64,000 bases of DNA from Alphaproteobacteria bacterium (GTDB lineage Bacteria > Pseudomonadota > Alphaproteobacteria > JAOXRX01). Below the pieces are notes generated by a model, which worked only from the letters and a program-made list of their open reading frames with translations, did not search any database and was not told where the DNA came from. Where the stretch lies: assembly GCA_025800285.1 (NCBI GenBank), contig JAOXRX010000039.1:10006-74005 (forward strand). The letters are read 5' to 3'. Below, in pieces: positions 6,581-57,880 of the stretch (position 1 is the stretch's first letter; the number at the start of each line of letters is the position of its first letter). Both the position numbers and the translations under genes were made by a program.

Positions 6581-7675
6581 TTAGAAGCCACTTGATATAG
6601 GGTATGTATTAACATTCTCCAACCATTCGCTAAGAGCTTTAATAACAGTTTCGGAGTAATCTCCCATTGCTATTACATAATCTTTATAAGAAGCGACCTT
6701 TTCAAGCTCATTAAGAGCACCAATAACAGCCTCCTTATTTGATATATCTTTATCTATGAAAACATAATTACTTGCATAAGGAACTCCGTATTCTTCTGCA
6801 ACACCAGCTGCGACGGAATAATAATTAGATTTTGAGTCCAAAAATGCTAAATCTTTGCTTTTTATAGATGCCATTATTGGCTTCATTACATTAATGTGTT
6901 TCTTGCTAGTAACTTTGGATCCCATATCATTAGTAATAGCTATAGGCATATAAGAATTATCCAGCACAGTATCTAAAACATCCACATTCTCCATTGTTGA
7001 ATTACCTGTAGTAATTGACAGTTCTGGAAGAGAAATGCTTTCGTTAAAAGGTTCCATTGTAATACTTACTATAAGATTATCAAAACCAGCTTCTTTCGCT
7101 TTCTTCATAGCTTCAAAATTACCATTTTTAAAAGCTAATCCAATTTCCTTGTTATTTGCTAAATATTTAATAACACTATCTATGTTCTCTGATGATATAT
7201 CTGTCAAAACAATAGATATATTAGTTGATTTCACAACAACCTCTTCTTGTTCCTCAACAACACTATCTATAACACTTTCTTCATTAGCTTCAGAAACAAC
7301 TTCTAAAGACTTTTCTTCAGAAACTAAATATGCTCCATTTAATGCTTCCCAAGAAGAATCTAATAGATTTTCATCTTCTAAACTCACCTCTTCATCATAT
7401 GTAAATAATTCTTCTGCAACCAAATCAACAACAGGCTCAGCAGGAACAAAGCTTTCTAAATCTGCACTTGGAACCACTTCTACAACAACTGGCTCCTCAA
7501 CAGTTATATAAACTTCATCAGACTTAGTTACTTCTAAAGAACCATAATCTGATCCACTCATAATATAAATAATAGATACAAAAGTTATTAATAATAAAAA
7601 TACTACTATTTTATAAACACTACTTAACATCTTCCACCTTCTTATCTGCTTCTTTGTAATCATTTTGTTTTGCAT
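6581..7675 (-). CDS. divergent polysaccharide deacetylase family protein (YibQ-like) with an acidic low-complexity N-terminal extension
   Basis: C-terminal 250 aa match the YibQ pattern (NDMGSKVTS, LAFLDSKSNYYSVAA, YVFIDKD); sits downstream of ctpA in the usual ctpA-yibQ arrangement; N-terminal TM plus a V/E-rich segment. Confidence 0.7.
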   Translation of the reverse strand: MQNKMITKKQIRRWKMLSSVYKIVVFLLLITFVSIIYIMSGSDYGSLEVTKSDEVYITVEEPVVVEVVPSADLESFVPAEPVVDLVAEELFTYDEEVSLEDENLLDSSWEALNGAYLVSEEKSLEVVSEANEESVIDSVVEEQEEVVVKSTNISIVLTDISSENIDSVIKYLANNKEIGLAFKNGNFEAMKKAKEAGFDNLIVSITMEPFNESISLPELSITTGNSTMENVDVLDTVLDNSYMPIAITNDMGSKVTSKKHINVMKPIMASIKSKDLAFLDSKSNYYSVAAGVAEEYGVPYASNYVFIDKDISNKEAVIGALNELEKVASYKDYVIAMGDYSETVIKALSEWLENVNTYPISSGF

Positions 7676-9011
7676 ATATTGCGATACCTTTTACAATTTC
7701 AATAGATCTGTTTAATTGATAATCATCTTTTTTATCACCAGAATTATCTTTGTTTTTAGGGTTTTTATCTTTTTTTTCACCCTTTTCTGGATTTTTAAGA
7801 GCCCCCTTCAAATCAGCTTCTTCTATTAGATATTTCTCCCAATCATTCTCTTTTTCTTTAAGCTCTTCATTTTTAATTTCGATATCTGGATCTATACCAA
7901 GAGCTTGTATAGAGTGTCCACTTGGAGTGTAATATCTTGAAGTTGTCATTTTTACAGCTGTTTTACCATTAACTAAAGGATAGATTGTTTGCACTGACCC
8001 TTTACCGAAAGATTTTGTTCCAACTATTACAGCTCTTTTATGATCCTTAAGAGCACCAGCAACAATTTCTGATGCAGAAGCAGAGCCTTGATTTATAATA
8101 ACAACTATTGGTTTTCCATTTGCTTTATCTCCATTTGCAGCAAAAAACTTCATATTATCAACAGAATCTCTACCTTTTGTTGAAACTATCTCGCCACCAT
8201 CTAAAAATGCTTCTGAAACAGCTATTGCCATAGTTAAAAGCCCTCCAGGGTTATTTCTTAAATCTAAAACATACCCATCAACATTAGCTCCAATTTCATC
8301 AAAAGCGGTTTCTAGCTCTGATTTAGTTTTTTGACTAAAAGTTGCAACTCTTATATATCCAATATTATCTATAACATCGCTTTTTACAGAGTCTATATTA
8401 ATTATATCTCTAACGATTTTAACATCTCTAGGTTCTCCTTTTAAACCTTGACGAACTGTAAGTGTGATATCTGTACCAGGCTCTCCTCTCATTCTATCTA
8501 CTGCATCATTTAAATCTATACCTATAATAGCTTCACCATCCAGATGAGTTATAAAATCACCGGACATAATACCTGCTTTTTGAGCTGGAGTATCATCTAT
8601 AGGAGAAACAACTTTTACAACCTCATCCTCTGTTGTAATTTGAATACCTAAACCACCAAACTTTCCAGAAGTTGAAACTTGCATATCTTCTAGCTCTTTT
8701 TCATCCAAGAAAGATGAGTGAGGATCCAAAGATTTAAGCATACCATCCAAAGACAAATCTATTATCTCTTTATATGTTTTTTCATCTACATATCTTTGTT
8801 TAACAAGAGATAAAACTGCTTCAAACTTTTCAAGTTGTTTATAAGCATCTTGGAGTTCATCATAAGTCATGACCATGCCCTTTGGAGCATTATCTACTTT
8901 TTTTGTTTCTAATTTTTTATTATTTGCTGTTGCATTATAACCGCTAATCATTATAGCGATAAAAAACACGAAAAATCTTTTCATAAAAACTATCCTATCC
9001 CTGAAATTCAT
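7620..9011 (-). CDS. ctpA: carboxyl-terminal processing protease (S41 family)
   Basis: PDZ segment (GGLGIQIT), S41 catalytic region VLDLRNNPGGLL and GSASASEIVAGAL. Confidence 0.9.
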   Translation of the reverse strand: MNFRDRIVFMKRFFVFFIAIMISGYNATANNKKLETKKVDNAPKGMVMTYDELQDAYKQLEKFEAVLSLVKQRYVDEKTYKEIIDLSLDGMLKSLDPHSSFLDEKELEDMQVSTSGKFGGLGIQITTEDEVVKVVSPIDDTPAQKAGIMSGDFITHLDGEAIIGIDLNDAVDRMRGEPGTDITLTVRQGLKGEPRDVKIVRDIINIDSVKSDVIDNIGYIRVATFSQKTKSELETAFDEIGANVDGYVLDLRNNPGGLLTMAIAVSEAFLDGGEIVSTKGRDSVDNMKFFAANGDKANGKPIVVIINQGSASASEIVAGALKDHKRAVIVGTKSFGKGSVQTIYPLVNGKTAVKMTTSRYYTPSGHSIQALGIDPDIEIKNEELKEKENDWEKYLIEEADLKGALKNPEKGEKKDKNPKNKDNSGDKKDDYQLNRSIEIVKGIAIYAKQNDYKEADKKVEDVK

Positions 9012-11235: not shown

Positions 11236-12690
11236 TTAGCTCTTTTTATTTTTTAACTTTAAATCACATTTACATATATCTGAAACCCTAAGCAAATCTA
11301 AATCAGACCATTTAACAAAACCTTCTAATAAAGAATAGCTATCTATACCTTTATTTGCATAATATTTGGCAATCAAATAAGACAGCTCTCCATATTCACA
11401 ATAAAATAGCACTCGGCGACCTTCCCATTTAGCCAAATATTTTTGATGGTTATTTATTAGCTCATCCTCAAGTATGTTAACACTATTAGGCAGTCTAGAG
11501 TGAACAAATTTATCATTATTTCTAACATCAACAATAATATTTCTCGTATTTATATCCATACTCTTAAACTTTGAAGTTGAACTTTCATATATTGTTTTTA
11601 TAGTTTTTTGAGGAGATATAGATATTTTTTTATTTTCTTTACTATAATTAAAAGTAATTTTATTTTCAGCAATTAATAATTCTTCATTTATTATTTTCGG
11701 AAATTTATTTCTAGGTAGACACTTGAAATATGTATCTAAATATGGAAAGGGAGAATCACATCCTATAAATACAACATTTATTCTACCTTGTTTATTTCTA
11801 ATTTTATCCAATAAATTATTTCTTTTAAGTTTCATTATATATTTAAGAGTTCCCGCTAGATTAAAACCAGAGCTTGGTCCTAATAATAATCCAGATCTAC
11901 ATAACTCTAAGCTTCTTAAATAGGAGTCATATGTGCTTACATCTATTATTTCATCTATATCCTTTTTCCAATCAAAATCAATCATTCTCAATAAGCCTAG
12001 AGTTCTTGGTCCAGATATTATGTTGTTAGGTTTTCTTACTATTCCAGATATTTTTAAATTTGGTAATTTTTCTTTAAGGTATTTAGCGCAACCAACCATG
12101 CTTCCTGTTGTTCCTAATCCAGTAGAAAATATTTGTATATCTCCATTTAATTGTTCATAAATTTGAGGTGCTGTAATTTTATAATGTGATTCAGGGTTGT
12201 TTTTATTGCTGTATTGATTCGGGTTAAACCATTTTTTTCTTTTCCCCATATTTTTAGCTATTTGAATTCCAGAGCTTAAATCACTTGGATCTGGACATAA
12301 AGGCTCATTATTAGCTTGCACTTCAGCCCCTGATAATAAGAGCATTTGTAATTTACCGATAGAGGTATCTTTTGCTGAAATAAGCACTCTAGTTTTTTTG
12401 AACCCAAAAATTTTAGATAATATACTAAGAGAAAATGCCGTATTTCCTGAAGAATTCTCAATTATATTATGTTCTTCTAACTTTTTATGTTTATCCAACA
12501 TATTATAGGATGGTATAGACTTTACATTCATTAATGGAGTAAAACTTAACATCTTTACAAACACATGAACTTCATCATTGTAAAAAGGATTTAACTCTTC
12601 TGGTATCTCGATTAATGGAGTAACATGGTTTTTAGGATTTAAAAAATCCTGCACTCCTTTTTTCCCTTTAAATACATTGTCTGATATCAT
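11236..12690 (-). CDS. PLP-dependent cysteine synthase-like enzyme fused to a C-terminal rhodanese domain
   Basis: N-terminal 330 aa align motif-by-motif with CysK/CysM (PLP-Lys region FVKMLSFTPLMNVKS, SGNTAFSLS, Gly loop STGLGTTGS); C-terminal 110 aa is a rhodanese fold with active-site loop FYCEYGELS. Confidence 0.65.
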   Translation of the reverse strand: MISDNVFKGKKGVQDFLNPKNHVTPLIEIPEELNPFYNDEVHVFVKMLSFTPLMNVKSIPSYNMLDKHKKLEEHNIIENSSGNTAFSLSILSKIFGFKKTRVLISAKDTSIGKLQMLLLSGAEVQANNEPLCPDPSDLSSGIQIAKNMGKRKKWFNPNQYSNKNNPESHYKITAPQIYEQLNGDIQIFSTGLGTTGSMVGCAKYLKEKLPNLKISGIVRKPNNIISGPRTLGLLRMIDFDWKKDIDEIIDVSTYDSYLRSLELCRSGLLLGPSSGFNLAGTLKYIMKLKRNNLLDKIRNKQGRINVVFIGCDSPFPYLDTYFKCLPRNKFPKIINEELLIAENKITFNYSKENKKISISPQKTIKTIYESSTSKFKSMDINTRNIIVDVRNNDKFVHSRLPNSVNILEDELINNHQKYLAKWEGRRVLFYCEYGELSYLIAKYYANKGIDSYSLLEGFVKWSDLDLLRVSDICKCDLKLKNKKS

Positions 12691-17097: not shown

Positions 17098-18351
17098 CTA
17101 AAACAACTCCCCTTGTTTATCTGTGATAATTTCTTCTTTTTCTATAATCACATCTTCTATATCAAACTTTTTATCTAACATAGCTATTAAACACCTACCT
17201 ATATGATATCCTAAATTAACAGGGACTGCATTGCCTATTTGTTTATATTGAGCACACATAGAACCTTTAAACTCCCAATAATCTGGAAATGTTTGTATTC
17301 TTGCATATTCTCTAACATTTAATGGTCTAGTTTCCTCGGGATGACATCTTTCAGTTTGTTTCTGAGCTGGAGAACAAGTTAAAGTTAAACTAGGTTCATC
17401 CCATGACAACCTTCTAGCCATTCCTGTTCTTCCCCCCGTATGATAAAAACTTTTTCCCATATATTCTTTTTGAACTTCTTCAGGCAAATCTCTCCAACAC
17501 CCTCCTGCAGGAACTTGTTTTAAAACTTTATATTTCTTCTCGGGATATTTTTGTCCTTCAGACTTAGGACAATCTTTTAAAGCTTCCCTCATAGAAATTG
17601 TATAATCTTTTTCTTTTGGAAATATAAAAGGTATATTTAAGTCTTCTCTTATAACTATTATTATCAACCTTTCCCTTTTTTGAGGAACATCTAAATATTG
17701 AGATCTTAATACTTTATAATGAACTTTGTATCCCAATTCCCTTAATGCATTACACATTGTTTTTAATGTTTTACCATTATCATGTCTTAAAAGACCTTTA
17801 ACATTCTCTCCAACCGCAATTTTAGGATTAGTTTCTTTGATACATCTTGCAAATTCAAAAAACAAAGTTCCTCTTGTATCTTCAAACCCCATACTTTTAC
17901 CAGCATAACTAAATGTTTGACAAGGGAATCCTGCTTGCACTATATCAACTTTATTTCTATATTCTTTAAAATCAAGATTTCTAACATCTTCATGAACTAT
18001 GTTAGCATTAGGAAAATTAAATCTTAATGTTTCAACCGCACTTTTATCTATTTCATTTAATAATAAATGATTTAAGCCTGCATTTTCAAATCCTAAAGAA
18101 GTTCCTCCCGCTCCTGCAAAAAGTTCTATTATATTATAGTCTGTTTTTATATTACTTTTTAAAATTTGAAAATTATTATCATTAGAAACTCCATTTAATT
18201 TAGAATTTAATCTTTGCACTTCCTCCAAATCAAAAACTCTATAATTTTTCTCATCTCTTTGAGATTTTATAAGACCTTTTTTATCCCATCTTCTAATTGT
18301 ATCTACAGAGACTTCTAATTCTTCACTTACCTGATGAACTGTTAAATTCAT
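17098..18351 (-). CDS. DNA (cytosine-5)-methyltransferase with an N-terminal MerR-type HTH (SsoII/Eco47II-like architecture)
   Basis: motif I ELFAGAGGTSLGF, motif IV GFPCQTFSYAGK, motif VI VGENVKGLL; N-terminal 45 aa form an HTH (VSVDTIRRWDKKGLI). Confidence 0.85.
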   Translation of the reverse strand: MNLTVHQVSEELEVSVDTIRRWDKKGLIKSQRDEKNYRVFDLEEVQRLNSKLNGVSNDNNFQILKSNIKTDYNIIELFAGAGGTSLGFENAGLNHLLLNEIDKSAVETLRFNFPNANIVHEDVRNLDFKEYRNKVDIVQAGFPCQTFSYAGKSMGFEDTRGTLFFEFARCIKETNPKIAVGENVKGLLRHDNGKTLKTMCNALRELGYKVHYKVLRSQYLDVPQKRERLIIIVIREDLNIPFIFPKEKDYTISMREALKDCPKSEGQKYPEKKYKVLKQVPAGGCWRDLPEEVQKEYMGKSFYHTGGRTGMARRLSWDEPSLTLTCSPAQKQTERCHPEETRPLNVREYARIQTFPDYWEFKGSMCAQYKQIGNAVPVNLGYHIGRCLIAMLDKKFDIEDVIIEKEEIITDKQGELF

Positions 18352-21162: not shown

Positions 21163-22419
21163 TTAATCATTAGAAATATTTTTAAAAATATTTAAAACCC
21201 CCTTGACTCTACCATCATTAATTCTAGGTCTAGAGTCAATATTATTATCAACAGATGCAATATATTTAGGAATTACATTTACAATACTACTTTTTAATTT
21301 GTCTAAACCGCCCCACTTATCATACTTACTAATATTCACCCCTGAATAACCAAGACTTACATATAAATTATTTTCCCCATTAGTTTCTTTTATAAATAAA
21401 GAAGAGCTTTTAACATTAGACCTCTTATTATAAGAATTATACATAACAACATTATCTATAACAGGAAGACCTCTAGTATCATTGTATAAATTCAAAGTTT
21501 CCTTTAAGAAAAATGGATAAAGATCTTTTGGATTTACAACACTCAATGCTTCATCAATATCATCTATAGCCTTAAAATATTTTTCATTAAATGGATCGTA
21601 TAATTCTAAATTAATCATATTAATATTAGCTAACATCTCTTTACTTTGCCTTGAATCTATAGAACTTTTTTTAACCAATATAGAAAAGTCTTTCCACATA
21701 GGACTTTCAAAATAAGATTTCAAAAACCCCCTACCATTATCATTACGATCAGACTGGAAAGCATCTAAGGGACTAACTTTTACCTCCTCAAAATATATAA
21801 TTAATGTTTTATCTTTAAGATTTGATACAATCCTATTTAAACCAGACACAGCATCATTTACTTCTTTCTTTGATAACGCATCCATTTCAGTTTTTGAAAC
21901 GGTTTCCATATACTCTTCATAATTAAAAAATACTTTTGGCAAATTAGTTTTATTTTTTATACCAATCCCTGTTGTTACTAACCAGCCTGAAAGAGCCCCT
22001 CCCAAAACCAAACAAGTTGTATTTTTTAACCAATTCTTAACACTATTTAAAGCTTTGTCCCCATCTTTTCTATCACCAAGCATTTTAGAGTATATAGAAT
22101 TTCTATGCTTTTTGAATCTTTTCAAAAAGATTCTCAAAGAATTACTTCTGTCTTTCCCCTGTTCTAAATCCTTAATTAAAATATTCTCTATACAACTATT
22201 GGTTTTTCTGACATGATCACAAGTATCTTTAAAACAATCAAAAGAAATCTGATTACCGCACTTAAAAACATCTTCAATATTATAAAGATTAACTATATCC
22301 TCTGTTTTTAAGACCTCCGCCTTGTTTAAAGTTTTGTTTACAGATTGCACTTTAAAGTTAGAAATCGACATATTACCCCCTTTAAAAATCATTTTTTTAC
22401 TTTTATAAGTATAACACAC
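21163..22419 (-). CDS. hypothetical protein (418 aa) with one predicted TM helix
   Basis: ORF only; sits next to the large membrane protein; no family recognised. Confidence 0.45.
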   Translation of the reverse strand: MCYTYKSKKMIFKGGNMSISNFKVQSVNKTLNKAEVLKTEDIVNLYNIEDVFKCGNQISFDCFKDTCDHVRKTNSCIENILIKDLEQGKDRSNSLRIFLKRFKKHRNSIYSKMLGDRKDGDKALNSVKNWLKNTTCLVLGGALSGWLVTTGIGIKNKTNLPKVFFNYEEYMETVSKTEMDALSKKEVNDAVSGLNRIVSNLKDKTLIIYFEEVKVSPLDAFQSDRNDNGRGFLKSYFESPMWKDFSILVKKSSIDSRQSKEMLANINMINLELYDPFNEKYFKAIDDIDEALSVVNPKDLYPFFLKETLNLYNDTRGLPVIDNVVMYNSYNKRSNVKSSSLFIKETNGENNLYVSLGYSGVNISKYDKWGGLDKLKSSIVNVIPKYIASVDNNIDSRPRINDGRVKGVLNIFKNISND

Positions 22420-22528: not shown

Positions 22529-25500
22529 ATGCTATCAAGTAAGAAAAAGACAAGATTTACTAAAAAGAAAATATCTAAAAAAATATTTATGCCAGAGTTT
22601 AACCGAAGCTTTTTACCTATAAAAATATCTATAGACTCTTTTGTTAGATTAATAGCAGGGATTTTCTCTCATGCGGGTTTATTAGACGAGGAAGATGATT
22701 TATTTAACACAAACCAATTATTAACATTTTCTGATTTTGGAGAAATGATTTTTGTTTCAGCAAAAAATATTAACTGGAGGAGTAAGAAATCAATACCACA
22801 AATTTGCTTATGGTTATCTTCAATTGCCTTAGTTATTTTTGTTTTATCAACACTACTTATCTTACTGTTTTCTTTAGCTACAGGAACTGCTAATGCAGCA
22901 TTAGCAATGGCTCAAGAAAACACAGGGGAGGATGTTAGCTCTTTATTTACATTAACTGAAGAGGTTGCTAAACATGAACATGGAACAACATGGTTAAACT
23001 GGATGTTTAATTTAGCTGGAGAATATAAACCTGCTGTGTTTGGTGAGGGAGGAACTGCTGCCAAACCAGGTATTGCCTTAGGATTTCAATCTATGCTTAC
23101 ATATTATAGTTCTACTTGTTTAATATTAGGCTCTATAATGGTTTCTTATTTATTTGTTGACAATATTGTTGACACAGCATCAACAGGTAAATTCATGGGG
23201 CAAGGCGATGAAGTATGGGCATATCCTAGAATACTAATAGCTATGTGTTTATTAGTACCTCTACCTAATGGCTCTGGTTTAAATATAGGTCAAAATCTTA
23301 TTATATCAATTTCTAAAGCGGGGTCAATTTTTGCAACAAATACATGGTTAGCTTTTCTAAAAAACTTAGGTGGCGAAGAAGGTAATGATTTAATATCTCC
23401 TGAAAGCTTTGATTTAGATAGTTTATCAAAAAATATGTTTGATTCATTTGTTTGTTATTGGGGAACTGCTATAGGTAATAAACTTCAAATTACTGACAAT
23501 AAAGATGGTATACCTCCTCATAAAACAAATGAGATAAAAAAAGAAAAAAGTGAATTATCAAAAGAAATACAATCCTTAAATGGTAAAATTGGCGGCGACT
23601 GTGAAATAGTTCCTTATAATAATGGGAAAATATCATCTTATTGGTATAAAGGAGATTGGAATGATTATACAAAAGAAGCTAGAAAAGAAGAATGTGAAGA
23701 TGATTTTTCGGATCCTAATGATTTCAGAATTACAGAACTTAAAGATATAATAAAGAAGGCAGACAACATTGGGTCAAAAGAATTAATGTTAGAACAAATG
23801 TATGGAGGACTAGAAAACCCAACTTCGATTAAGATTACAAAAGCTTCAAAAGCAGATTCTTTATCTTATGACTTTAATCTTGGTTCAGGTAGCAATGCTA
23901 TTACAATGGCTGGAGCTTGTGGTTCTTATGGACCTGCATTTTTCCAACAAGAATTTGAAGAAAAAGATGCAACTAGAGATTGCATATCAGAGAATCCTCA
24001 TGACTTAAACAACTTAATAACTTGTACGGAAGCAAAAATGCAAGCTAATGTAAAAAAAGGATTTTTAGCAGCTTTAAACAAAGAAAATGTTTTTGGATTT
24101 ATATCTGACACTTCTGAAGAAGCTGCGACATCACAATTTCAAATACCTAGTGTCCCTAAAGGAGGTATTGATGCTTATGTTGTAAACAAATCTGTAAAAT
24201 TAATTTCTGAGAAAAATTTTAAAAATGAAAAGTATAAAAAAGCCATAAAAGCAGCAAAAATAACTCCCCCTACACCAAACAGTTTATCAAGTTATGCTTA
24301 TGATTTTGTCCTTGCATCTTTATACTCAGATAAAAGTGGTAAAAATTTTATACCAAAAGGAATTGAACCTCTTAATTATAAAAACTTTGAAGACTCTTTA
24401 GATCTTATTAAAGATAATACTATATCTCTTCAGTCAGAAGAATATGGAAAACGCTTTAGTGAAAATATGGCTCCATACTTTAAAATAGCCAACGAATCTT
24501 TTAGAGATTTAAATTCTCATCTATTTGGTAATGCCAAAGAAAACAAAAAACCTGCAGAAACCGATATAGCTAATCAGATGCAAAAAGGATGGATAGCAGC
24601 TGGGGCTTTTTATTCTCTATTATCTCAAATAAACGGATTAGGTATAAAAGCAACAAGTGCAAGCTATGCTTACTCTTCCCCTATCTCATCTTTTACAGGT
24701 AGTCGTTCTATAAAAATAGATACATATTCATCTGATAAGATGACTGGATTCATACCTTATCTTGACTATATATTAACAAAAAAAGATCTTATTATTGGCA
24801 ATATAGAGAAAAAAACAACAGGAATAAGCTCAACAGATGAAAGCTCCAGCATGGGATCAAATGTTGCCATGTTAGCTGACATAATGAATACTGCTACTGG
24901 TTTAGCAGGAGCTAGTATTACAAATATAAATGGCGCTAATCCCTTCGCAGACTTAGTTAACCTTGGGCATTTATTAATAAATACAGCAACCTATACTAAA
25001 ATTTTAACTACCATGAAAGCTGAAACATATAAATCTATAGGTAACCTTCTTGCTAAAATTGGTGGAGCAATACCATATGGAGCTGGTATTGGCTCAGTAT
25101 TAGCATCTAAAATACCTAGCTATAAAGGGGAAATCATAAAGCAATTGGCTATACCTTTAAACATATTTCAAGGTATGATATTTAGTTTTGGTATAACTCT
25201 AGCCTATTATTTACCTTTGGTTCCTTTTATAAAGTTTATAATGGGAGGTATAGGATGGTTCGCTGCTGTCTTCCAAGCAGTAATTGGAACTCCTTTACTT
25301 TTATTAGGACATATAACTGTAAAAAAAGGTAGCATGATACTTGGACCAGACAGAGGTAAATACATGATGATTCTTGAAATATTCTTAAGGCCTGTTTTAA
25401 TGGTATTTGGCATGATAGGATCAATGCTACTACTATCTGTTGCAACATATATATTTAATGACTTATATAACTTTGCTTGGGGTGTTAGAAGCATGAATAG

Positions 25501-26068
25501 TGTTTGGGGAGGGTCAATACTATCTTTTGCCTCATATTTTAAAGGTCTAGCATATATAAGTATATATGTAACTACAATATACACTATAGCTACAAACTGC
25601 TTCAAACTTATAGATGATGTACCAGGTAAAGTCATAAGTTGGATGGGTGGCGGAGCCGGATATTCATTGAGCGGTGCTGAAGATGCTGTAGAACAAGGCG
25701 CTGGAAGTGCTGGTAAGTTCATAGAAAAAAGTATTGATGCATCAAGACAAAAATCATTAGATGATGAACAAACTAATAAGAAAAAGAATATTGCAAGAGA
25801 TGACAGAATTAAAGATACTATTGTAAAACATGGATCCGAAAAAGGAAATATGTTAGCCGATATGGAAGAAGGGAAATACGATGCAAATAAAGGTGAGTAT
25901 GTTGACATGTCAGATCAAGAGAAAAAAGAAGCTAAACAAAGGCTTGAAGATCATAGATCTGGTGGCGACCCTTATGGTATTAGAGCTAAAGAAAACGCTT
26001 CTACTTCCTCAACTGGGTTGAATCAGGACGGTAATATGAATATTGAGCCTCCTAAAAAAGACTCTTAA
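22529..26068 (+). CDS. large polytopic inner-membrane protein, possibly T4SS-associated (VirB6/TrbL-like or DotA/TraY-like architecture)
   Basis: 1179 aa; N-terminal TM helices, roughly 500 aa hydrophilic middle domain, C-terminal cluster of 5-6 TM helices (residues ~830-1010), charged tail; family call is by architecture only. Confidence 0.4.
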   Translation: MLSSKKKTRFTKKKISKKIFMPEFNRSFLPIKISIDSFVRLIAGIFSHAGLLDEEDDLFNTNQLLTFSDFGEMIFVSAKNINWRSKKSIPQICLWLSSIALVIFVLSTLLILLFSLATGTANAALAMAQENTGEDVSSLFTLTEEVAKHEHGTTWLNWMFNLAGEYKPAVFGEGGTAAKPGIALGFQSMLTYYSSTCLILGSIMVSYLFVDNIVDTASTGKFMGQGDEVWAYPRILIAMCLLVPLPNGSGLNIGQNLIISISKAGSIFATNTWLAFLKNLGGEEGNDLISPESFDLDSLSKNMFDSFVCYWGTAIGNKLQITDNKDGIPPHKTNEIKKEKSELSKEIQSLNGKIGGDCEIVPYNNGKISSYWYKGDWNDYTKEARKEECEDDFSDPNDFRITELKDIIKKADNIGSKELMLEQMYGGLENPTSIKITKASKADSLSYDFNLGSGSNAITMAGACGSYGPAFFQQEFEEKDATRDCISENPHDLNNLITCTEAKMQANVKKGFLAALNKENVFGFISDTSEEAATSQFQIPSVPKGGIDAYVVNKSVKLISEKNFKNEKYKKAIKAAKITPPTPNSLSSYAYDFVLASLYSDKSGKNFIPKGIEPLNYKNFEDSLDLIKDNTISLQSEEYGKRFSENMAPYFKIANESFRDLNSHLFGNAKENKKPAETDIANQMQKGWIAAGAFYSLLSQINGLGIKATSASYAYSSPISSFTGSRSIKIDTYSSDKMTGFIPYLDYILTKKDLIIGNIEKKTTGISSTDESSSMGSNVAMLADIMNTATGLAGASITNINGANPFADLVNLGHLLINTATYTKILTTMKAETYKSIGNLLAKIGGAIPYGAGIGSVLASKIPSYKGEIIKQLAIPLNIFQGMIFSFGITLAYYLPLVPFIKFIMGGIGWFAAVFQAVIGTPLLLLGHITVKKGSMILGPDRGKYMMILEIFLRPVLMVFGMIGSMLLLSVATYIFNDLYNFAWGVRSMNSVWGGSILSFASYFKGLAYISIYVTTIYTIATNCFKLIDDVPGKVISWMGGGAGYSLSGAEDAVEQGAGSAGKFIEKSIDASRQKSLDDEQTNKKKNIARDDRIKDTIVKHGSEKGNMLADMEEGKYDANKGEYVDMSDQEKKEAKQRLEDHRSGGDPYGIRAKENASTSSTGLNQDGNMNIEPPKKDS

Positions 26069-26250: not shown

Positions 26251-27375
26251 ATGAGCTTATCAAAAAAAAATATAAATATAAAAACAGGGATTTATATCCA
26301 CTACCCTTTTTGTTTATCAAAATGTTCTTATTGTGATTTTAACTCTATTGCAAACAAAAACATCGATCAAGACAAAGTTTTAGATGCATTCTTCAGAGAT
26401 TTAGACTATTACAAAAGTCTCGTCGGCGACAGACAAATATCTACAATTTATTTCGGAGGAGGAACCCCCTCTTTAATGTCTCCGCAAATGGTGAAAAAGA
26501 TAATTGATTATATAAAAGAACATTTCTCTTTATTAGACAATGCAGAAATAACTATAGAGGCAAATCCTCTTACGGCAGAGATAAAGAAATTTAAAGCATT
26601 TAAAACCGCTGGAATAAATAGAATCTCTATAGGAGCTCAATCTTTCTCTCAAAAAGGCTTAAAAGCTTTAGGAAGAACTCATAGTGTAAAACAAACCAAA
26701 AAAGCTTTAAAAGTTGCTAAAAAAGTATTTAACCGAAGCTCTTTTGATTTAATATATGGCTGGAAGGGTCAAACTCTTGCAGATTGGAAAAAGGATTTAA
26801 AAACAGCTCTAAAATATCATAATGGGCACATATCTATGTATCAACTAACAATATATGAAGGAACTGCTCTATATAAAAATGGAGAAAAGGAAATAGATGA
26901 AGATACATCCCTACTCTTTCAAGAAACCGCAAAATGCATTTTATCAAAACAAGGAATAAATCAATATGAGATTTCAAATTATTCTAAAACAAGCGAAGAA
27001 TCTCGACACAATTTACTATATTGGCACTATGATGATTATATTGGCATAGGAGCTGGAGCTAGTGGCAGATTAACTATAAATGGAAAAAAGAAAGCTTTTA
27101 TAAATGAACCTAACATTAAAAATTGGCTGAAAAAGAACTCCCCAGATATAGAAACAATAAATGATAAAGAGAAAGCTTATGAATATTTAATTATGGGATT
27201 GCGATTGAACAAAGGTATTTGTTTGAAAGATTTTCAAGCGAAAACTAGCATCGATATAAAAAAAATGATTGCTGATAAAAATTTAAATGATTTTTTAAAA
27301 ATAAATAAAGGTTACCTTTTTGCAACAAAAAAAGGCAGAGACTGTTTAAACCTTTTACTACAGAAGTTATTTTAA
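26251..27375 (+). CDS. hemW: radical SAM heme chaperone HemW (coproporphyrinogen III oxidase-like)
   Basis: YIHYPFCLSKCSYCDF radical-SAM Cys cluster; HemW/HemN-like length and layout. Confidence 0.85.
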   Translation: MSLSKKNINIKTGIYIHYPFCLSKCSYCDFNSIANKNIDQDKVLDAFFRDLDYYKSLVGDRQISTIYFGGGTPSLMSPQMVKKIIDYIKEHFSLLDNAEITIEANPLTAEIKKFKAFKTAGINRISIGAQSFSQKGLKALGRTHSVKQTKKALKVAKKVFNRSSFDLIYGWKGQTLADWKKDLKTALKYHNGHISMYQLTIYEGTALYKNGEKEIDEDTSLLFQETAKCILSKQGINQYEISNYSKTSEESRHNLLYWHYDDYIGIGAGASGRLTINGKKKAFINEPNIKNWLKKNSPDIETINDKEKAYEYLIMGLRLNKGICLKDFQAKTSIDIKKMIADKNLNDFLKINKGYLFATKKGRDCLNLLLQKLF

Positions 27376-32768: not shown

Positions 32769-33130
32769 ATCATTCTGAGTGTAACGAAGAATCTTTTCAT
32801 GCTTGAGAAATCTTAACTAACACTCAGTGGCACAAGAAGATTCTTCTTCGCTTCGCTCATCAGAATGACCGGCTTGGAAAAATGGTAATGTCATTTTGAG
32901 CGACTGCAAGGAGTCGAAAAATCTTTTCATCATGATATATTATTATATTGTCATTCTGAACACAGTGAAGAATCTTTTCATGCTTGTGGAATGTTAATTT
33001 ATATCCAGTAACACAATGAGATTCTTCACTACCACACAAGTGTGTCCGTTCAGAATGGCGACAAATAAAAAGTTTGGCACTGATTTAAAACAGTGCGATT
33101 CTTCTTCGCTTCGCTCATCAGAATGACTGT
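32769..33130. repeat. cluster of four hairpin-forming palindromic elements (RPE-like family), two complete (~110 bp) and two partial
   Basis: termini cattctga ... tcagaatg and gaagaatctt ... aagattcttc are mutually complementary; the same family recurs at about 50.1, 52.1, 56.6 and 57.8 kb. Confidence 0.8.
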
Positions 33131-48673: not shown

Positions 48674-50050
48674 ATGTACTCAAATAAACTGAATAAAAAA
48701 GGAAAATTTTATATGTACAGACCATCAAAAAGAGAAAAAGACGAATTAAGACAGTTTTCAATAGAACCAGATTATATGGGAAACCCAGAAGGTTCTTGCA
48801 TGGTTAAAGCGGGAAACACTCATGTATTATGCGTTGCTACTGTAGAAAAGTCAGTGCCAATGTTTTTAAGAGGAACTGGTAAAGGCTGGGTAACTGCTGA
48901 GTATGGCATGCTACCTCGTTCAACAGATCAAAGAATGAGAAGAGAAGCTACTATTGGCAAACAAAGCGGAAGAACTCTGGAGATACAAAGACTAATTGGC
49001 AGATCTTTAAGAGCTATCATAGATATGGATAAGCTAAACGAATATCAAATTAAAATAGATTGTGATGTTATCAGAGCCGATGGAGGCACTAGAACAGCAG
49101 CTATATCAGGAGCTTATGTTGCTCTTAGCAAAGCTGTGGACTTCATGTTAGAAAAAGGGATAATAAATGAAAATCCAATCTATGAACAAGTGGCTGCCGT
49201 ATCTTGTGGCATCTTCAAAGGAGAGCCTGTATTAGATTTAGATTTTTATGAAGATTCAAATGCTCAAGCTGACTCTAACTTTGTTTTAACAGCTAGCGGT
49301 AAAATAATAGAAGTTCAAGGTACTGCCGAAAAAGAGCCTTTCTCTAAATCAGAACTAATGGAGCTTTTATCTCTAGCAGAAAAAGGAGTTTCAGAAATAG
49401 CTCAAGAACAAAACAGAGCTCTTAAAAAAGGTGCTAACCGTAGAAAATTCAAACCAGGTGATGAAATAATTATTGCCACTCATAACATGGGTAAATTTAA
49501 AGAGTTTAGAAATGCCTTAGCTCCATATACAGAGAATGTTCTATCAGGAAATGATATAAACTTACCAGATGTAGAAGAAACAGAAGACACTTTTGAAGGT
49601 AATGCTAAGCTTAAAGCTATAGCTGGAGCAAAGCATACTGGTAAAATTGTAATAGCTGATGATAGCGGTTTTTGTGTAAAAAAATTAAAAGGAAGACCGG
49701 GAGTATATTCAAAAAGGTTTGCTGTTGAAGTTGGGAATGGAAAAGAAAACTATCCTGCAGCAATTGCAAAATTAAATGAAGAGCTAGGAAACAACAAAGA
49801 CAGAAGAGCAAGTTTCTGTTGTTGTTTAGTAATTGCTTGGCCAGATGGACATACAGAGACTCTAAATGGTAGAGTTAACGGCAAACTATTAAAAACATTA
49901 CAAGGTGAAGATGGTTTTGGTTTTGACCCTGCATTTGTTCCTAATGGACACGATAGAACTTTTGCTGAAATGAGTTTAGAGGAAAAGCAGAAACTTTCTC
50001 ATAGAGGAAAAGCTTTATCTTCTTTAATTGAAGAAGTATTTGAAAAGTAA
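48674..50050 (+). CDS. rph: in-frame fusion of ribonuclease PH (N-terminal ~250 aa) and the RdgB/HAM1 dITP/XTP pyrophosphatase (C-terminal ~200 aa); likely start near 48713
   Basis: Rph motifs ([14 protein letters not shown]) then linker [10 protein letters not shown], then RdgB motifs ([31 protein letters not shown]) with no intervening stop. Confidence 0.8.
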
Positions 50051-50089: not shown

Positions 50090-50325
50090 TGTCATTCCCC
50101 TGAAAAGGGGAATCTTCTTGTGCTACCCCCCTTTTTCTTTTTTAGTCATTCTGATGAGCGGAGCGAAGAAGAATCTCACTGTTTTAAATCAGTGCCAAAC
50201 TTTTTATTTGTCGTCATTCTGAACGGACACACTTGTGTGGTAGTGAAGAATCTCACCGTGCTACTGGATATGAATTCACATTACACAAGCACGAAAGGAT
50301 TTTTCACTTTTTCAGAATGACAAGC
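50090..50325. repeat. cluster of RPE-like palindromic elements (one complete ~110-bp copy at 50213-50322 plus partial copies)
   Basis: gtcattctgaacggacacacttgtgtgg ... ttcagaatgac termini; same family as 32769-33130. Confidence 0.8.
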
Positions 50326-50343
50326 AAATAAGAAGGCATAAAA

Positions 50344-50370
50344 AAAGCTCCCAAAACAGGGAGCTTTTTT
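50344..50370. terminator. bidirectional terminator after the BspA-like LRR gene
   Basis: hairpin aagctccc-aaaaca-gggagctt flanked by A6 and T6. Confidence 0.8.
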
Positions 50371-50388
50371 AAACAATAAATAACTTTG

Positions 50389-51906
50389 TTAATTAGAACT
50401 AAATACCCAACCTTTCCCCTCTAAAGTTGCTTTAGCAGATGAACATGTAGCATCTGAACAAGTATTGCCCCCAACTCTAATACTTCCTGTATTTTTCAAC
50501 TTAGCATTTGAATTAGAAATAGTTGATAGAAAACTAGAGTATATAGATGAAGACACTGAAGATGAGTAATCAATTACTGATAAGTTCGATGCATTCATCA
50601 TACTATTTAAATAAACTACTTTAGTTGTATCTAATCCACTAAGGTTTAAATTAGCTATATTATTTAAACCAGTATAACTATCTCCACCAAACATATTAGT
50701 CATATTTGTAACCTTGCTTGTATCAAAATTACTTATATCTAGTGTAGTTAAGCTCTCTAGGCCATAAAACATACCATTAGGGTCGACAAGACTACTTGTA
50801 TTAAAGTTGCTCACATCTAGACTTGTTAGCTTTTTCATACCGCCAAACATAGCAGCTGTATGTGTTACATTACTTGTATCAAATGAACTAACATCTAGTG
50901 TAGTTAAGCTCTCTAGCCCCCAAAACATATCACCCATATTAGTAACCTTCCTTGTATCAAATGAACTGATATTTAGACTTGTTATATTATTCGCATTCTC
51001 AAACATACTATTCATATTTGTTACATTACTTGTATCTAGACCTCTCAAATCAATATTTGTTATATATTCAGCATTATAGAACATCTCTGACATATCAGCC
51101 ACACCGCTGGTATCACAATCCCCCGCAGTAAAAGAAGTCAAACGAGAATAAGAAAAAGAGCGATTAAAGCTTTTCCAACCCACATTGCCTAAGTTTTCAA
51201 CTGTTTTCATTTTTGTAGGAACATGGCTAATATAAGGGAAATCCCCTGTTATTTTAACAGTCTTTCTTCCTCCAGTACTATATGTATGTGTAATATGGTA
51301 ATTTGTAAAATCATTACAATCACTGTCATCATCCCAACAAATTCTACCATTATATCCACTTGAAACTTTAGTAGGGAAAATTATTGTATCTCCAGCATTA
51401 ACTTCCCATGTTGTAACAAAAGGATTTTCTGCCACAGCATCACTAACATCAATAGAAGCGATTTTAGTTCCTTCTTGAACTTTATTAACTACTGCTGATA
51501 GGGTTATGTTTACTGTTCCACTTGCTTTTGCTTTTGCGATTGTTAGAGTTCTATTTGCTCCAGTTCCTGTAATGCTAACATCACTCGCTAAAACAACATC
51601 TTCATTCGCTAAACTAAAGCTAACAGCTACATCGTCTGCATTTATACCTCCTGAAGGAGTCAAAGTAATAGCAAATGTTTTATTTGTATCACTAGCTTTC
51701 ATAGAAATGCTTTCAACCGCTATACTTACACTTCCTTGTTGTTCCGGATTTTCACTACCATCAAATGGAGTGGCAGGGTTAGCTTGTAAACTACCTGATA
51801 AATTCTCGAAATAATAATAATCTCTTGCATGTGAAATTCCAACTGCTGAGCTTATAAACGAAACAGCTATAGCTGAAAGTAAAAGCTTATTAGATAATTT
51901 TTTCAT
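50389..51906 (-). CDS. BspA-type leucine-rich repeat surface protein (bacterial surface protein 26-residue repeat family) with signal peptide
   Basis: at least 7 tandem copies of L..LDTSNVTNM..MF...N.IT.L.IS.FDT; N-terminal signal peptide; beta-rich N-terminal domain. Confidence 0.75.
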   Translation of the reverse strand: MKKLSNKLLLSAIAVSFISSAVGISHARDYYYFENLSGSLQANPATPFDGSENPEQQGSVSIAVESISMKASDTNKTFAITLTPSGGINADDVAVSFSLANEDVVLASDVSITGTGANRTLTIAKAKASGTVNITLSAVVNKVQEGTKIASIDVSDAVAENPFVTTWEVNAGDTIIFPTKVSSGYNGRICWDDDSDCNDFTNYHITHTYSTGGRKTVKITGDFPYISHVPTKMKTVENLGNVGWKSFNRSFSYSRLTSFTAGDCDTSGVADMSEMFYNAEYITNIDLRGLDTSNVTNMNSMFENANNITSLNISSFDTRKVTNMGDMFWGLESLTTLDVSSFDTSNVTHTAAMFGGMKKLTSLDVSNFNTSSLVDPNGMFYGLESLTTLDISNFDTSKVTNMTNMFGGDSYTGLNNIANLNLSGLDTTKVVYLNSMMNASNLSVIDYSSSVSSSIYSSFLSTISNSNAKLKNTGSIRVGGNTCSDATCSSAKATLEGKGWVFSSN

Positions 51907-52065: not shown

Positions 52066-52335
52066 CGGAGCGAAGAAGAATCTTCTTGTGTTGCTGGATT
52101 TACCCTTCTATTCCGTCATTCTGAACGGACACACTTGTGTGGCAGTGAAGAATCTCACTGTGCTACTGGATATAAATCAATATTACACAGGCATGAAAAG
52201 ATTCTTCTTCGCTTTGCTCATCATAATGACGGGGAATAGTGAGAATGATGAAAAGATTTTTCATTTTGTTCAGAATGGGGATATAATAATATAGCATGGT
52301 GAAAAAATTCTTCCTTGCACTTAGAATGGTGGGAA
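52066..52335. repeat. cluster of RPE-like palindromic elements; the copy at 52115-52203 is a ~90% direct repeat of 50212-50300
   Basis: cgtcattctgaacggacacacttgtgtggcagtgaagaatctcactgtgctactggatat ... aligned against the 50.2 kb copy. Confidence 0.8.
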
Positions 52336-57776: not shown

Positions 57777-57880
57777 TTCTGAGTGTAACGAAGAATCTTT
57801 TCATGCTTGTGGAATGTGAATTGATATCCAGTAGCACAGTGAGATTCTTCTTCGCTCCGCTCATCAGAATGACCGGCTGA
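57777..57880. repeat. right portion of the RPE-like palindromic element split by the IS (left portion ends at 56697)
   Basis: tgagtgtaacgaagaatcttttcatgcttgtggaatg ... cgctcatcagaatgaccggc matches the element at 32769-32876. Confidence 0.8.

Follow-up and report, generated by a model that had tools for sequence, protein, structure and literature searches.

A fused rph::rdgB gene in an alphaproteobacterial genome: a probable in situ fusion and an independent occurrence of a known two-enzyme architecture

Ribonuclease PH (RNase PH) trims the 3' ends of tRNA as a phosphorolytic 3'→5' exoribonuclease, and RdgB (HAM1) hydrolyses inosine, deoxyinosine and xanthosine triphosphates ((d)ITP/XTP) to the monophosphate and pyrophosphate (PPi); in crystal structures the former is a hexamer and the latter a dimer. 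Proteins in which the two are joined already bear names in public databases, namely 'ribonuclease PH/non-canonical purine NTP pyrophosphatase (RdgB/HAM1 family)' at JGI, 'Multifunctional fusion protein' in UniRef and 'ribonuclease PH' (~435-477 amino acids, aa) at NCBI. The hemW-rdgB-rph gene neighbourhood is conserved (PMC13495026). Here we describe a fused gene, rph::rdgB, in 64,000 nucleotides of an alphaproteobacterial genome (contig JAOXRX010000039.1 of assembly GCA_025800285.1, positions 10,006 to 74,005; this whole stretch of DNA is hereafter the window). We consider it a genuine and evolutionarily fixed fusion that arose in situ in an uncultured lineage of low GC content and specifies a single ~445-aa polypeptide with two catalytic modules, a reading to which we give a probability of about 0.86. 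The fusion is real but already widespread and named in databases, and the window gene is an independent occurrence of this known architecture.

A preliminary description of this DNA, made from the letters only, had reported a single 458-aa open reading frame (ORF) at 48674..50050 on the forward strand that carries both enzymes, and translation (no internal stops), Pfam and NCBIfam all bear this out. On the 458-aa ORF, Pfam places RNase_PH at residues 24-154, RNase_PH_C at 173-238 and Ham1p_like at 265-453, in that order and in one frame without a stop, which is the architecture expected of a fusion. The NCBIfam models TIGR01966 (RNase PH; 354.1 bits against a cutoff of 141.5, residues 16-250 of the 458-aa ORF, model positions 1-235 of 236) and TIGR00042 (RdgB/HAM1; 173.2 bits against 145.35, residues 264-453 of the same ORF, model positions 1-181 of 184) are likewise matched above their thresholds. 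PF01138 and PF03725 both exceed their gathering thresholds on the RNase PH half, and PF01725 scores 197.7 bits on the RdgB half over model positions 1-185 of 186; the more specific PRK-type equivalogs (NF0113xx) score under their cutoffs on the latter.

The true start of rph::rdgB is probably the ATG at 48713 (M14 of the 458-aa ORF), for a protein of 445 aa, and not the upstream ATG of the longest ORF at 48674 (forward strand). We favour this start because two diverged orthologues (P0002 and P0004, below) begin there with MYRPS..., because an AGGAA motif lies upstream and because a public gene call (P0390, 445 aa) uses the same position. The AGGAA motif (48700..48704, +), read from the sequence 8 nt 5' of the ATG, is Shine-Dalgarno-like and presumably acts as such. 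The probable coding region is thus 48713..50050 (+; 445 aa plus stop), and residue numbers below follow the 445-aa protein unless the 458-aa ORF is named. Within it, all on the forward strand, we distinguish an RNase PH half (residues 1-237; 48713..49423) by full-length alignment and fold match, a linker of 13 residues (238-250; 49424..49462) by the clade alignment and by comparison with the junctions of the unfused loci L001 and L002 described below, and an RdgB/HAM1 non-canonical purine NTP pyrophosphatase half (251-445; 49463..50047) by alignment to Protein Data Bank (PDB) entries and by Foldseek.

The same fused gene is present in related sequences from several sources. A sister contig of a metagenome-assembled genome (MAG) carries a 99%-identical copy (P0001, locus L026, JGI 3300045489), and four diverged orthologues are P0002 (80% identity; L028, Logan SRR14597295), P0003 (78%; L029, ENA ERZ27250158), P0004 (78%; L025, on a 94-kb contig of JGI 3300000503) and P0005 (65%; L027, JGI 3300014204). 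All of them are fused, although projects and assemblers differ. The clade alignment has zero gaps near the junction, where the linker is conserved in a pattern that includes (K/N)PG(D/E)E-IIIATHN. No member of the clade has a stop at the junction, which is gap-free and in frame throughout, whereas L001 and L002 have their stop there, within an ATGA overlap. For the diverged pairs of the clade we estimated dN/dS, the ratio of nonsynonymous to synonymous substitution rates, by the Nei-Gojobori method and obtained 0.05-0.18 for the RNase PH half, 0.06-0.28 for the linker (13 codons) and 0.10-0.42 for the RdgB half; dS exceeded 1 in nearly all of these pairs, so that synonymous sites are saturated. 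The gap-free junction and the low dN/dS in the linker therefore indicate that the junction has long been translated in this frame. A scan of GTDB genomes returned none with the fused clade, its top matches being unfused relatives.

These comparisons bear directly on whether a spurious indel, introduced in sequencing or assembly, joined two genes in this contig. Sporadic or artefactual fusions do seem to occur in databases. On the contig of P0007 (locus L032; ENA ERZ25039550 contig_24631) hrcA is split and hemW truncated, suggesting an indel-rich long-read assembly, and the junctions of the Bradyrhizobium-type proteins P0008 and P0013 resemble out-of-frame read-through up to the RdgB methionine. 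Two further loci, L004 (Hydrogenedens) and L005, were initially taken to span both halves; they proved to hold them in two frames and were rejected as fusions. For the window gene, an error of this kind is nevertheless extremely improbable, since it could not be inherited across orthologues of 65-80% identity: the diverged copies in four other assemblies share the junction, the saturated dS and the low linker dN/dS, and the 99%-identical sister contig is fused as well. A homopolymer-type run, AAAAAAGG, sits at 49424-49431, in the start of the linker. The preliminary description had left the choice between a bifunctional enzyme and a stop loss or sequencing frameshift. What stands is a genuine fusion by a stop loss that became fixed in the lineage; a sequencing error does not agree with the diverged fused orthologues, and the case in which relatives uniformly have two genes and this one is an isolated mistake is contradicted by the four other assemblies and the sister contig.

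Public annotations of this gene disagree. The same ORF is called as 458 aa at JGI and as 445 aa by Logan, and NCBI lists for this MAG only an RdgB of 192 aa (MCV6599326.1, 49472-50050) that starts at the in-frame ATT codon I254. For the 99%-identical sister MAG, NCBI again lists only RdgB, here of 217 aa (MCT4574695.1) from an ATA codon, which corresponds to 49385-50050. That near-identical genomes are split differently and that rare starts are used point to a pipeline heuristic rather than to biology. Such models would hide the fusion, and they could mislead surveys that count rph or rdgB in reduced alphaproteobacterial genomes.

Taken at face value, the two NCBI models would mean that RdgB is also, or only, made as a separate protein, through internal initiation at a rare start (ATT/ATA) or through proteolysis of the linker. 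The linker is basic and has a lower predicted local distance difference test score (pLDDT) than the domains, and so could be accessible to a protease; it also contains the stretch AAAAAAGGTG. On the other side, the NCBI models conflict with one another despite 99% identical DNA, substitutions in the linker follow the pattern of a coding sequence read in the frame of Rph, and fused homologues of Enterococcus and related bacteria are annotated as single ~450-aa proteins. Furthermore, no in-frame ATG, GTG or TTG is conserved near the junction across the clade: P0004 has none in codons 225-262, and the sole in-frame start near the junction of the window protein, M259, lies 3' of the essential ATHN motif. 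This lack of a conserved start for RdgB in the clade indicates that its translation depends on the fusion. We thus regard separate production of RdgB as unlikely, internal initiation included, and prefer the single polypeptide, as part of which alone the RdgB domain of this clade would be made.

The unfused relatives suggest how the fusion came about. The nearest species-representative genomes in the GTDB scan are a Holosporaceae MAG (L001, CAZEUR010000017) and an alphaproteobacterial MAG (L002, CALXOZ010000001). In each, hrcA-grpE lies on one strand while rph, rdgB and hemW are individual genes on the opposite strand; for these three genes this is the usual arrangement that the preliminary description had named for comparison. 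In both, the rph stop and the rdgB start overlap by 4 bp as ATGA, and by tblastn the two halves fall in different frames. Their Rph and RdgB proteins are 57-59% and ~42-43% identical, respectively, to the halves of the window protein. Compared with L001 and L002, the linker corresponds to the last ~3 residues of Rph followed by the ~10-residue leader of RdgB (NRRKF... against TMRKL... in L002), and no sequence has been inserted. It follows that the TGA was removed by a frame change amounting to one base net. We propose that an ancestral grpE <-> rph-rdgB-hemW locus, with the rph stop and rdgB start overlapping as ATGA, would have lost the TGA and had its two frames joined by such a change, the exact mutation not being reconstructable; the tail of Rph and the leader of RdgB would then have become the linker of ~13 residues, and hemW (and hrcA) would have been split from the locus later by rearrangement. 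If so, the locus is a clean case of a 4-bp ATGA-overlapped gene pair becoming a fusion.

The gene order around rph::rdgB is consistent with this history. The divergent 5' neighbour is grpE (48055..48576, -; Pfam GrpE), with synteny in L025, L026, L028, L029, L001 and L002, and it lies upstream of the fusion in the contigs of the clade wherever a contig extends that far. The fused clade has thus kept the divergent grpE, and hrcA and hemW are gone from the locus. The hemW homologue lies ~22 kb from the fusion, where the preliminary description had put it (26251..27375, +; Radical_SAM and HemN_C); it is 43% identical to the HemW of L001 and an exact match to MCV6599306.1, 'radical SAM family heme chaperone HemW'. 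A further protein of the window, LptD, corresponds exactly to MCV6599323, and the proteins of the near-identical sister MAG bear MCT45746xx accessions. No hrcA homologue was found in the 64-kb window and grpE stands alone, whereas in the nearest unfused relatives hrcA is beside grpE. The canonical hrcA-grpE <-> rph-rdgB-hemW layout is thus absent here, the downstream neighbour of the fusion being instead a convergent gene of the DUF285/leucine-rich-repeat (LRR) type. The lone grpE and the missing hrcA suggest that the heat-shock/rph locus has been substantially rearranged in this lineage.

We searched with each half separately to trace its ancestry (120 matches each; the fused clade was not listed again, so that the best matches are the best outside the clade). 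For the RNase PH half, all 120 matches listed were stand-alone proteins of ~238 aa at 59-66% identity, and those with a taxon name were almost all alphaproteobacterial (Sneathiella, Rhizobiaceae, Devosiaceae, Emcibacteraceae, Rhodospirillales and Puniceispirillum). For the RdgB half, all 120 listed were stand-alone RdgB proteins of 193-245 aa (almost all 193-214) at 39-52% identity (nearly all 44-52%), the named ones coming from Alphaproteobacteria MAGs and Alcanivorax. The corresponding identities to known fusions were 49-58% for the RNase PH half (Firmicutes and Actinobacteria) and 35-46% for the RdgB half (Firmicutes). Both halves are thus nearer to stand-alone proteobacterial proteins, and the window gene does not qualify as an orthologue of the fused group in Firmicutes. 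In a tree of the RNase PH half (here and below a simple Kimura-corrected neighbour-joining tree, not maximum likelihood, with support out of 200 replicates), the window clade is recovered in 200/200 replicates and nested among unfused Alphaproteobacteria in 160/200.

A gene acquired horizontally in an already fused state, for example from Firmicutes, would leave a different pattern. In a search with the full-length protein, the matches beyond P0001-P0005 and P0006-P0008 (three fusions at ~50% identity that lack a taxon name or are Bradyrhizobium-like) are indeed dominated by Firmicutes fusions, at 43-50% identity. However, this ranking arises since both halves score at once, and each half taken separately is nearest to stand-alone proteobacterial proteins. 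The RNase PH tree puts the clade within the Alphaproteobacteria, and the divergent grpE is the ancestral alphaproteobacterial context. Moreover, GC content is ~30% across the window and the fusion locus equals the rest, and the linker is a homologue of the RdgB leader of unfused relatives, matching it in length and in part of its sequence. The half-by-half ancestry and the synteny therefore lead us to reject the import of a ready-made fusion, which we consider scarcely credible, in favour of fusion in situ.

Both halves keep the residues expected of active enzymes, and the catalytic motifs and linker quoted in the preliminary description were all found in the translation. The RNase PH half has the phosphate-binding GGTR (G124 G125 T126 R127; 49082-49093) together with R87, and the acidic motif DLDxxEDSxAxxD with D175, E180, D181 and D187. 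All of these residues are invariant in 70 fused proteins and all are kept here. The equivalents of Aquifex R86, T125 and R126 presumably bind phosphate, a role that we take from the PDB mutant entries 1udo, 1udq and 1uds and from established literature. The half aligns over its full length with PDB 1r6l and 1oyp at 53-56% identity. In the RdgB half we found ATHNMGK (A255, N258, K261), EET (E289), NAKLK (N297, K301), ADDSG at 49655-49669 (with DDSG at 49658-49669; D316 D317 S318 G319), FGFDP (F402-P406) and SHR (H430 R431). The same 70 proteins show no variation at D316-D317-S318-G319, F402-G403, D405, K425 or H430-R431, and ≥90% of them share N258, K261 and E289; all are kept here. This half aligns end to end with PDB 4bnq, 6wwd, 3tqu, 1k7k and 2pyu, and it differs from the usual motifs in having FGFDP for FGYDP (Y→F) and YSKRF for YSARY.

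An AlphaFold2 model of the protein has a pLDDT of 91.2 overall, with both domains above 90 and the linker at ~65. In Foldseek comparisons (TM-scores normalised to the target), the RNase PH half matches 1oyr and 1r6l with TM-scores of 0.94-0.96 at a root-mean-square deviation of 1.3-1.6 Å, and the RdgB half matches S. aureus Ham1 (4bnq) with 0.87. A search of the PDB by sequence and by Foldseek returned no solved chain that covers both domains. Conserved catalytic residues and the confident model together suggest that the fusion would possess both enzymatic activities.

One half might be without catalysis and kept as a scaffold or regulatory domain. In favour of this, the RdgB half changes at a somewhat higher rate than its partner (dN/dS reaching the 0.42 given above) and carries the minor variants FGFDP and YSKRF. 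A degenerate half is nonetheless very unlikely, given that the residues conserved across the 70 fused proteins are retained in both halves, that both family models score above their equivalog cutoffs and that the 64-kb window holds no second copy of rph or rdgB.

Two intact modules would perform both reactions, namely inorganic phosphate-dependent 3' trimming of tRNA or other RNA and hydrolysis of (d)ITP/XTP. The consequence of the fusion would most likely be obligatory 1:1 co-expression of two functions that were already co-transcribed and translationally coupled through the ATGA overlap. A metabolic link is conceivable, in that RNase PH frees nucleoside diphosphates (NDPs), including inosine diphosphate from inosine-containing tRNA, which once phosphorylated would be substrates of RdgB. 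Direct channelling from RNase PH to RdgB is unlikely, because the product of the former is an NDP and the substrate of the latter is a triphosphate. A more speculative arrangement, which we regard as doubtful, is that RdgB dimers decorate the RNase PH hexamer to form one particle for RNA decay and nucleotide sanitation, which would locally capture the non-canonical nucleotides freed when inosine-containing or damaged RNA is phosphorolysed; if true, coupling of this type would explain the adjacency of rph and rdgB across bacteria.

Several points weigh against a genuine two-enzyme fusion of local origin. The RdgB half is at most 52% identical to any stand-alone RdgB, so that its ancestry rests mainly on synteny. 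The NCBI models list separate RdgB proteins from the in-frame ATT and ATA codons. The predicted template modelling score (pTM) of the AlphaFold2 model is 0.59, which leaves the relative orientation of the domains undefined, and the hexamer of RNase PH and the dimer of RdgB may not both be able to form in the fusion. Finally, a literature search found no biochemical or structural study of any RNase PH-RdgB fusion.

The spacer 3' of the fusion gene contains a perfect 12-bp hairpin, AAAAAAGCTCCC/GGGAGCTTTTTT, flanked by A/T runs (50341..50370, with no strand assigned). It is likely to be a bidirectional terminator common to the fusion and the convergent DUF285/LRR gene. A promoter scan gave matches no more numerous than in shuffled sequence. 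Dispersed in the window, between genes, is a family of short repeats that follow the pattern GTCATTC...GAATCT; GTCATTCTGATGAGCGGAGCGAAGAAGAATCT and GTCATTCTGAACGGACACACTTGTGTGG(T/C)AGTGAAGAATCT are examples. As a variable-gap pattern these have 7 matches in the window against 0.12 expected by chance, and at fixed spacing the pattern has no matches there. The copies are at 50091-50115, 50145-50176, 50213-50253, 52115-52155 and 32950-32975 on the forward strand and at 32838-32869 and 57842-57873 on the reverse strand, and three of them lie inside the 338-bp spacer directly 3' of the fusion gene. They may resemble the small palindromic repeats that occur in endosymbiont genomes.

Two genes for repeat proteins flank the fusion. 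The DUF285 (Mycoplasma-type)/LRR protein (50389-51906, -; 505 aa) has a signal-like N-terminus, and a 280-aa protein at 47175-48017 (+) has no Pfam match but visible LRR-like repeats of ~22 residues. Such lineage-specific proteins could serve a host-associated bacterium at its surface or as effectors. Farther away, the Rfam model of Rickettsia sRNA47 (Rp_sR47) matches 7957-8261 (+) with 61.1 bits against a gathering score of 60. The match may reflect conserved coding sequence rather than an sRNA, because it lies antisense within a gene for a CtpA-like S41 peptidase with a PDZ domain (7620-9011, -). Other fusions in the window are a MerR-type helix-turn-helix domain joined to a C-5 cytosine DNA methyltransferase (17098-18351, -) and a pyridoxal-phosphate-dependent (PALP) enzyme joined to a rhodanese domain (11236-12690, -). 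Three large ORFs are without a match in Pfam, those at 22529-26068 (+; 1179 aa) and 41339-42274 (+; 311 aa) at E ≤ 1e-3 and that at 21163-22419 (-; 418 aa) at E ≤ 1e-5.

The fused architecture extends well beyond this clade. In a search of 5.8 billion proteins, nearly all of the top 120 clusters have all three Pfam domains, which gives more than 100 fused clusters, among them Enterococcus, Vagococcus, Clostridiales, Eubacteriales, other Bacillota, Arthrobacter and Bradyrhizobium. In a library of 1.84 billion representatives (50% clusters), 13 of the best 150 matches are complete fusions, P0004 representing the present clade; among the rest, stand-alone RNase PH predominates and a few fusions are truncated or partial. 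The linkers of the complete fusions among these representatives are 6-49 residues long and unrelated in sequence. P0007 (L032), P0008 and P0013 look like frameshift products, and database counts of the architecture are somewhat inflated accordingly.

Independent fusions have recurred, at least twice in Alphaproteobacteria and also in Firmicutes and Actinobacteria; by Rosetta-stone logic this recurrence fits a functional interaction without demonstrating one. The fusion itself is not new and the gain in knowledge is modest. Nevertheless, the repeated joining of rph and rdgB offers support of the Rosetta-stone type for a link between phosphorolytic RNA trimming or decay and the clearance of inosine and xanthosine nucleotides. 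Such a link would also explain the conserved gene neighbourhood; the searchable literature yielded no experimental study of the link.

Set beside the known systems, each half of the window protein corresponds to a stand-alone enzyme. The N-terminal half is matched over its full length, in sequence and in fold, by RNase PH of P. aeruginosa (1r6l), B. subtilis (1oyp) and A. aeolicus (1udn), and the C-terminal half is matched over its full length by RdgB/Ham1 of S. aureus (4bnq), E. coli (1k7k, 2pyu/2q16) and C. burnetii (3tqu). The separate rph-rdgB-hemW cluster of L001 and L002 agrees with the window in its two enzymes, in their order and in the divergent grpE, but there the enzymes are two polypeptides with hrcA and hemW adjacent, whereas the window has one polypeptide with hemW 22 kb away. 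A second alphaproteobacterium-like lineage, that of P0006 (NCBI GCA_900762585.1 and six other contigs), also has a fused rph::rdgB with grpE near and no hemW downstream, but its protein is 50% identical to that of the window and the two halves are joined by another linker, AEARPRPEIKK. The tree of RNase PH groups P0006 with the unfused L002 in 170/200 replicates and with the window clade in 1/200, and therefore the fusion has occurred more than once within the Alphaproteobacteria. The fusions of Bacillota and Arthrobacter are like the window protein in domain order, similar length, a short linker and invariant catalytic residues, but they share 43-50% identity with it overall and their linkers are unrelated. 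Since its halves are nearer to stand-alone proteobacterial genes than to the Firmicutes fusions, the window gene represents an independent fusion event rather than an orthologue of those proteins.

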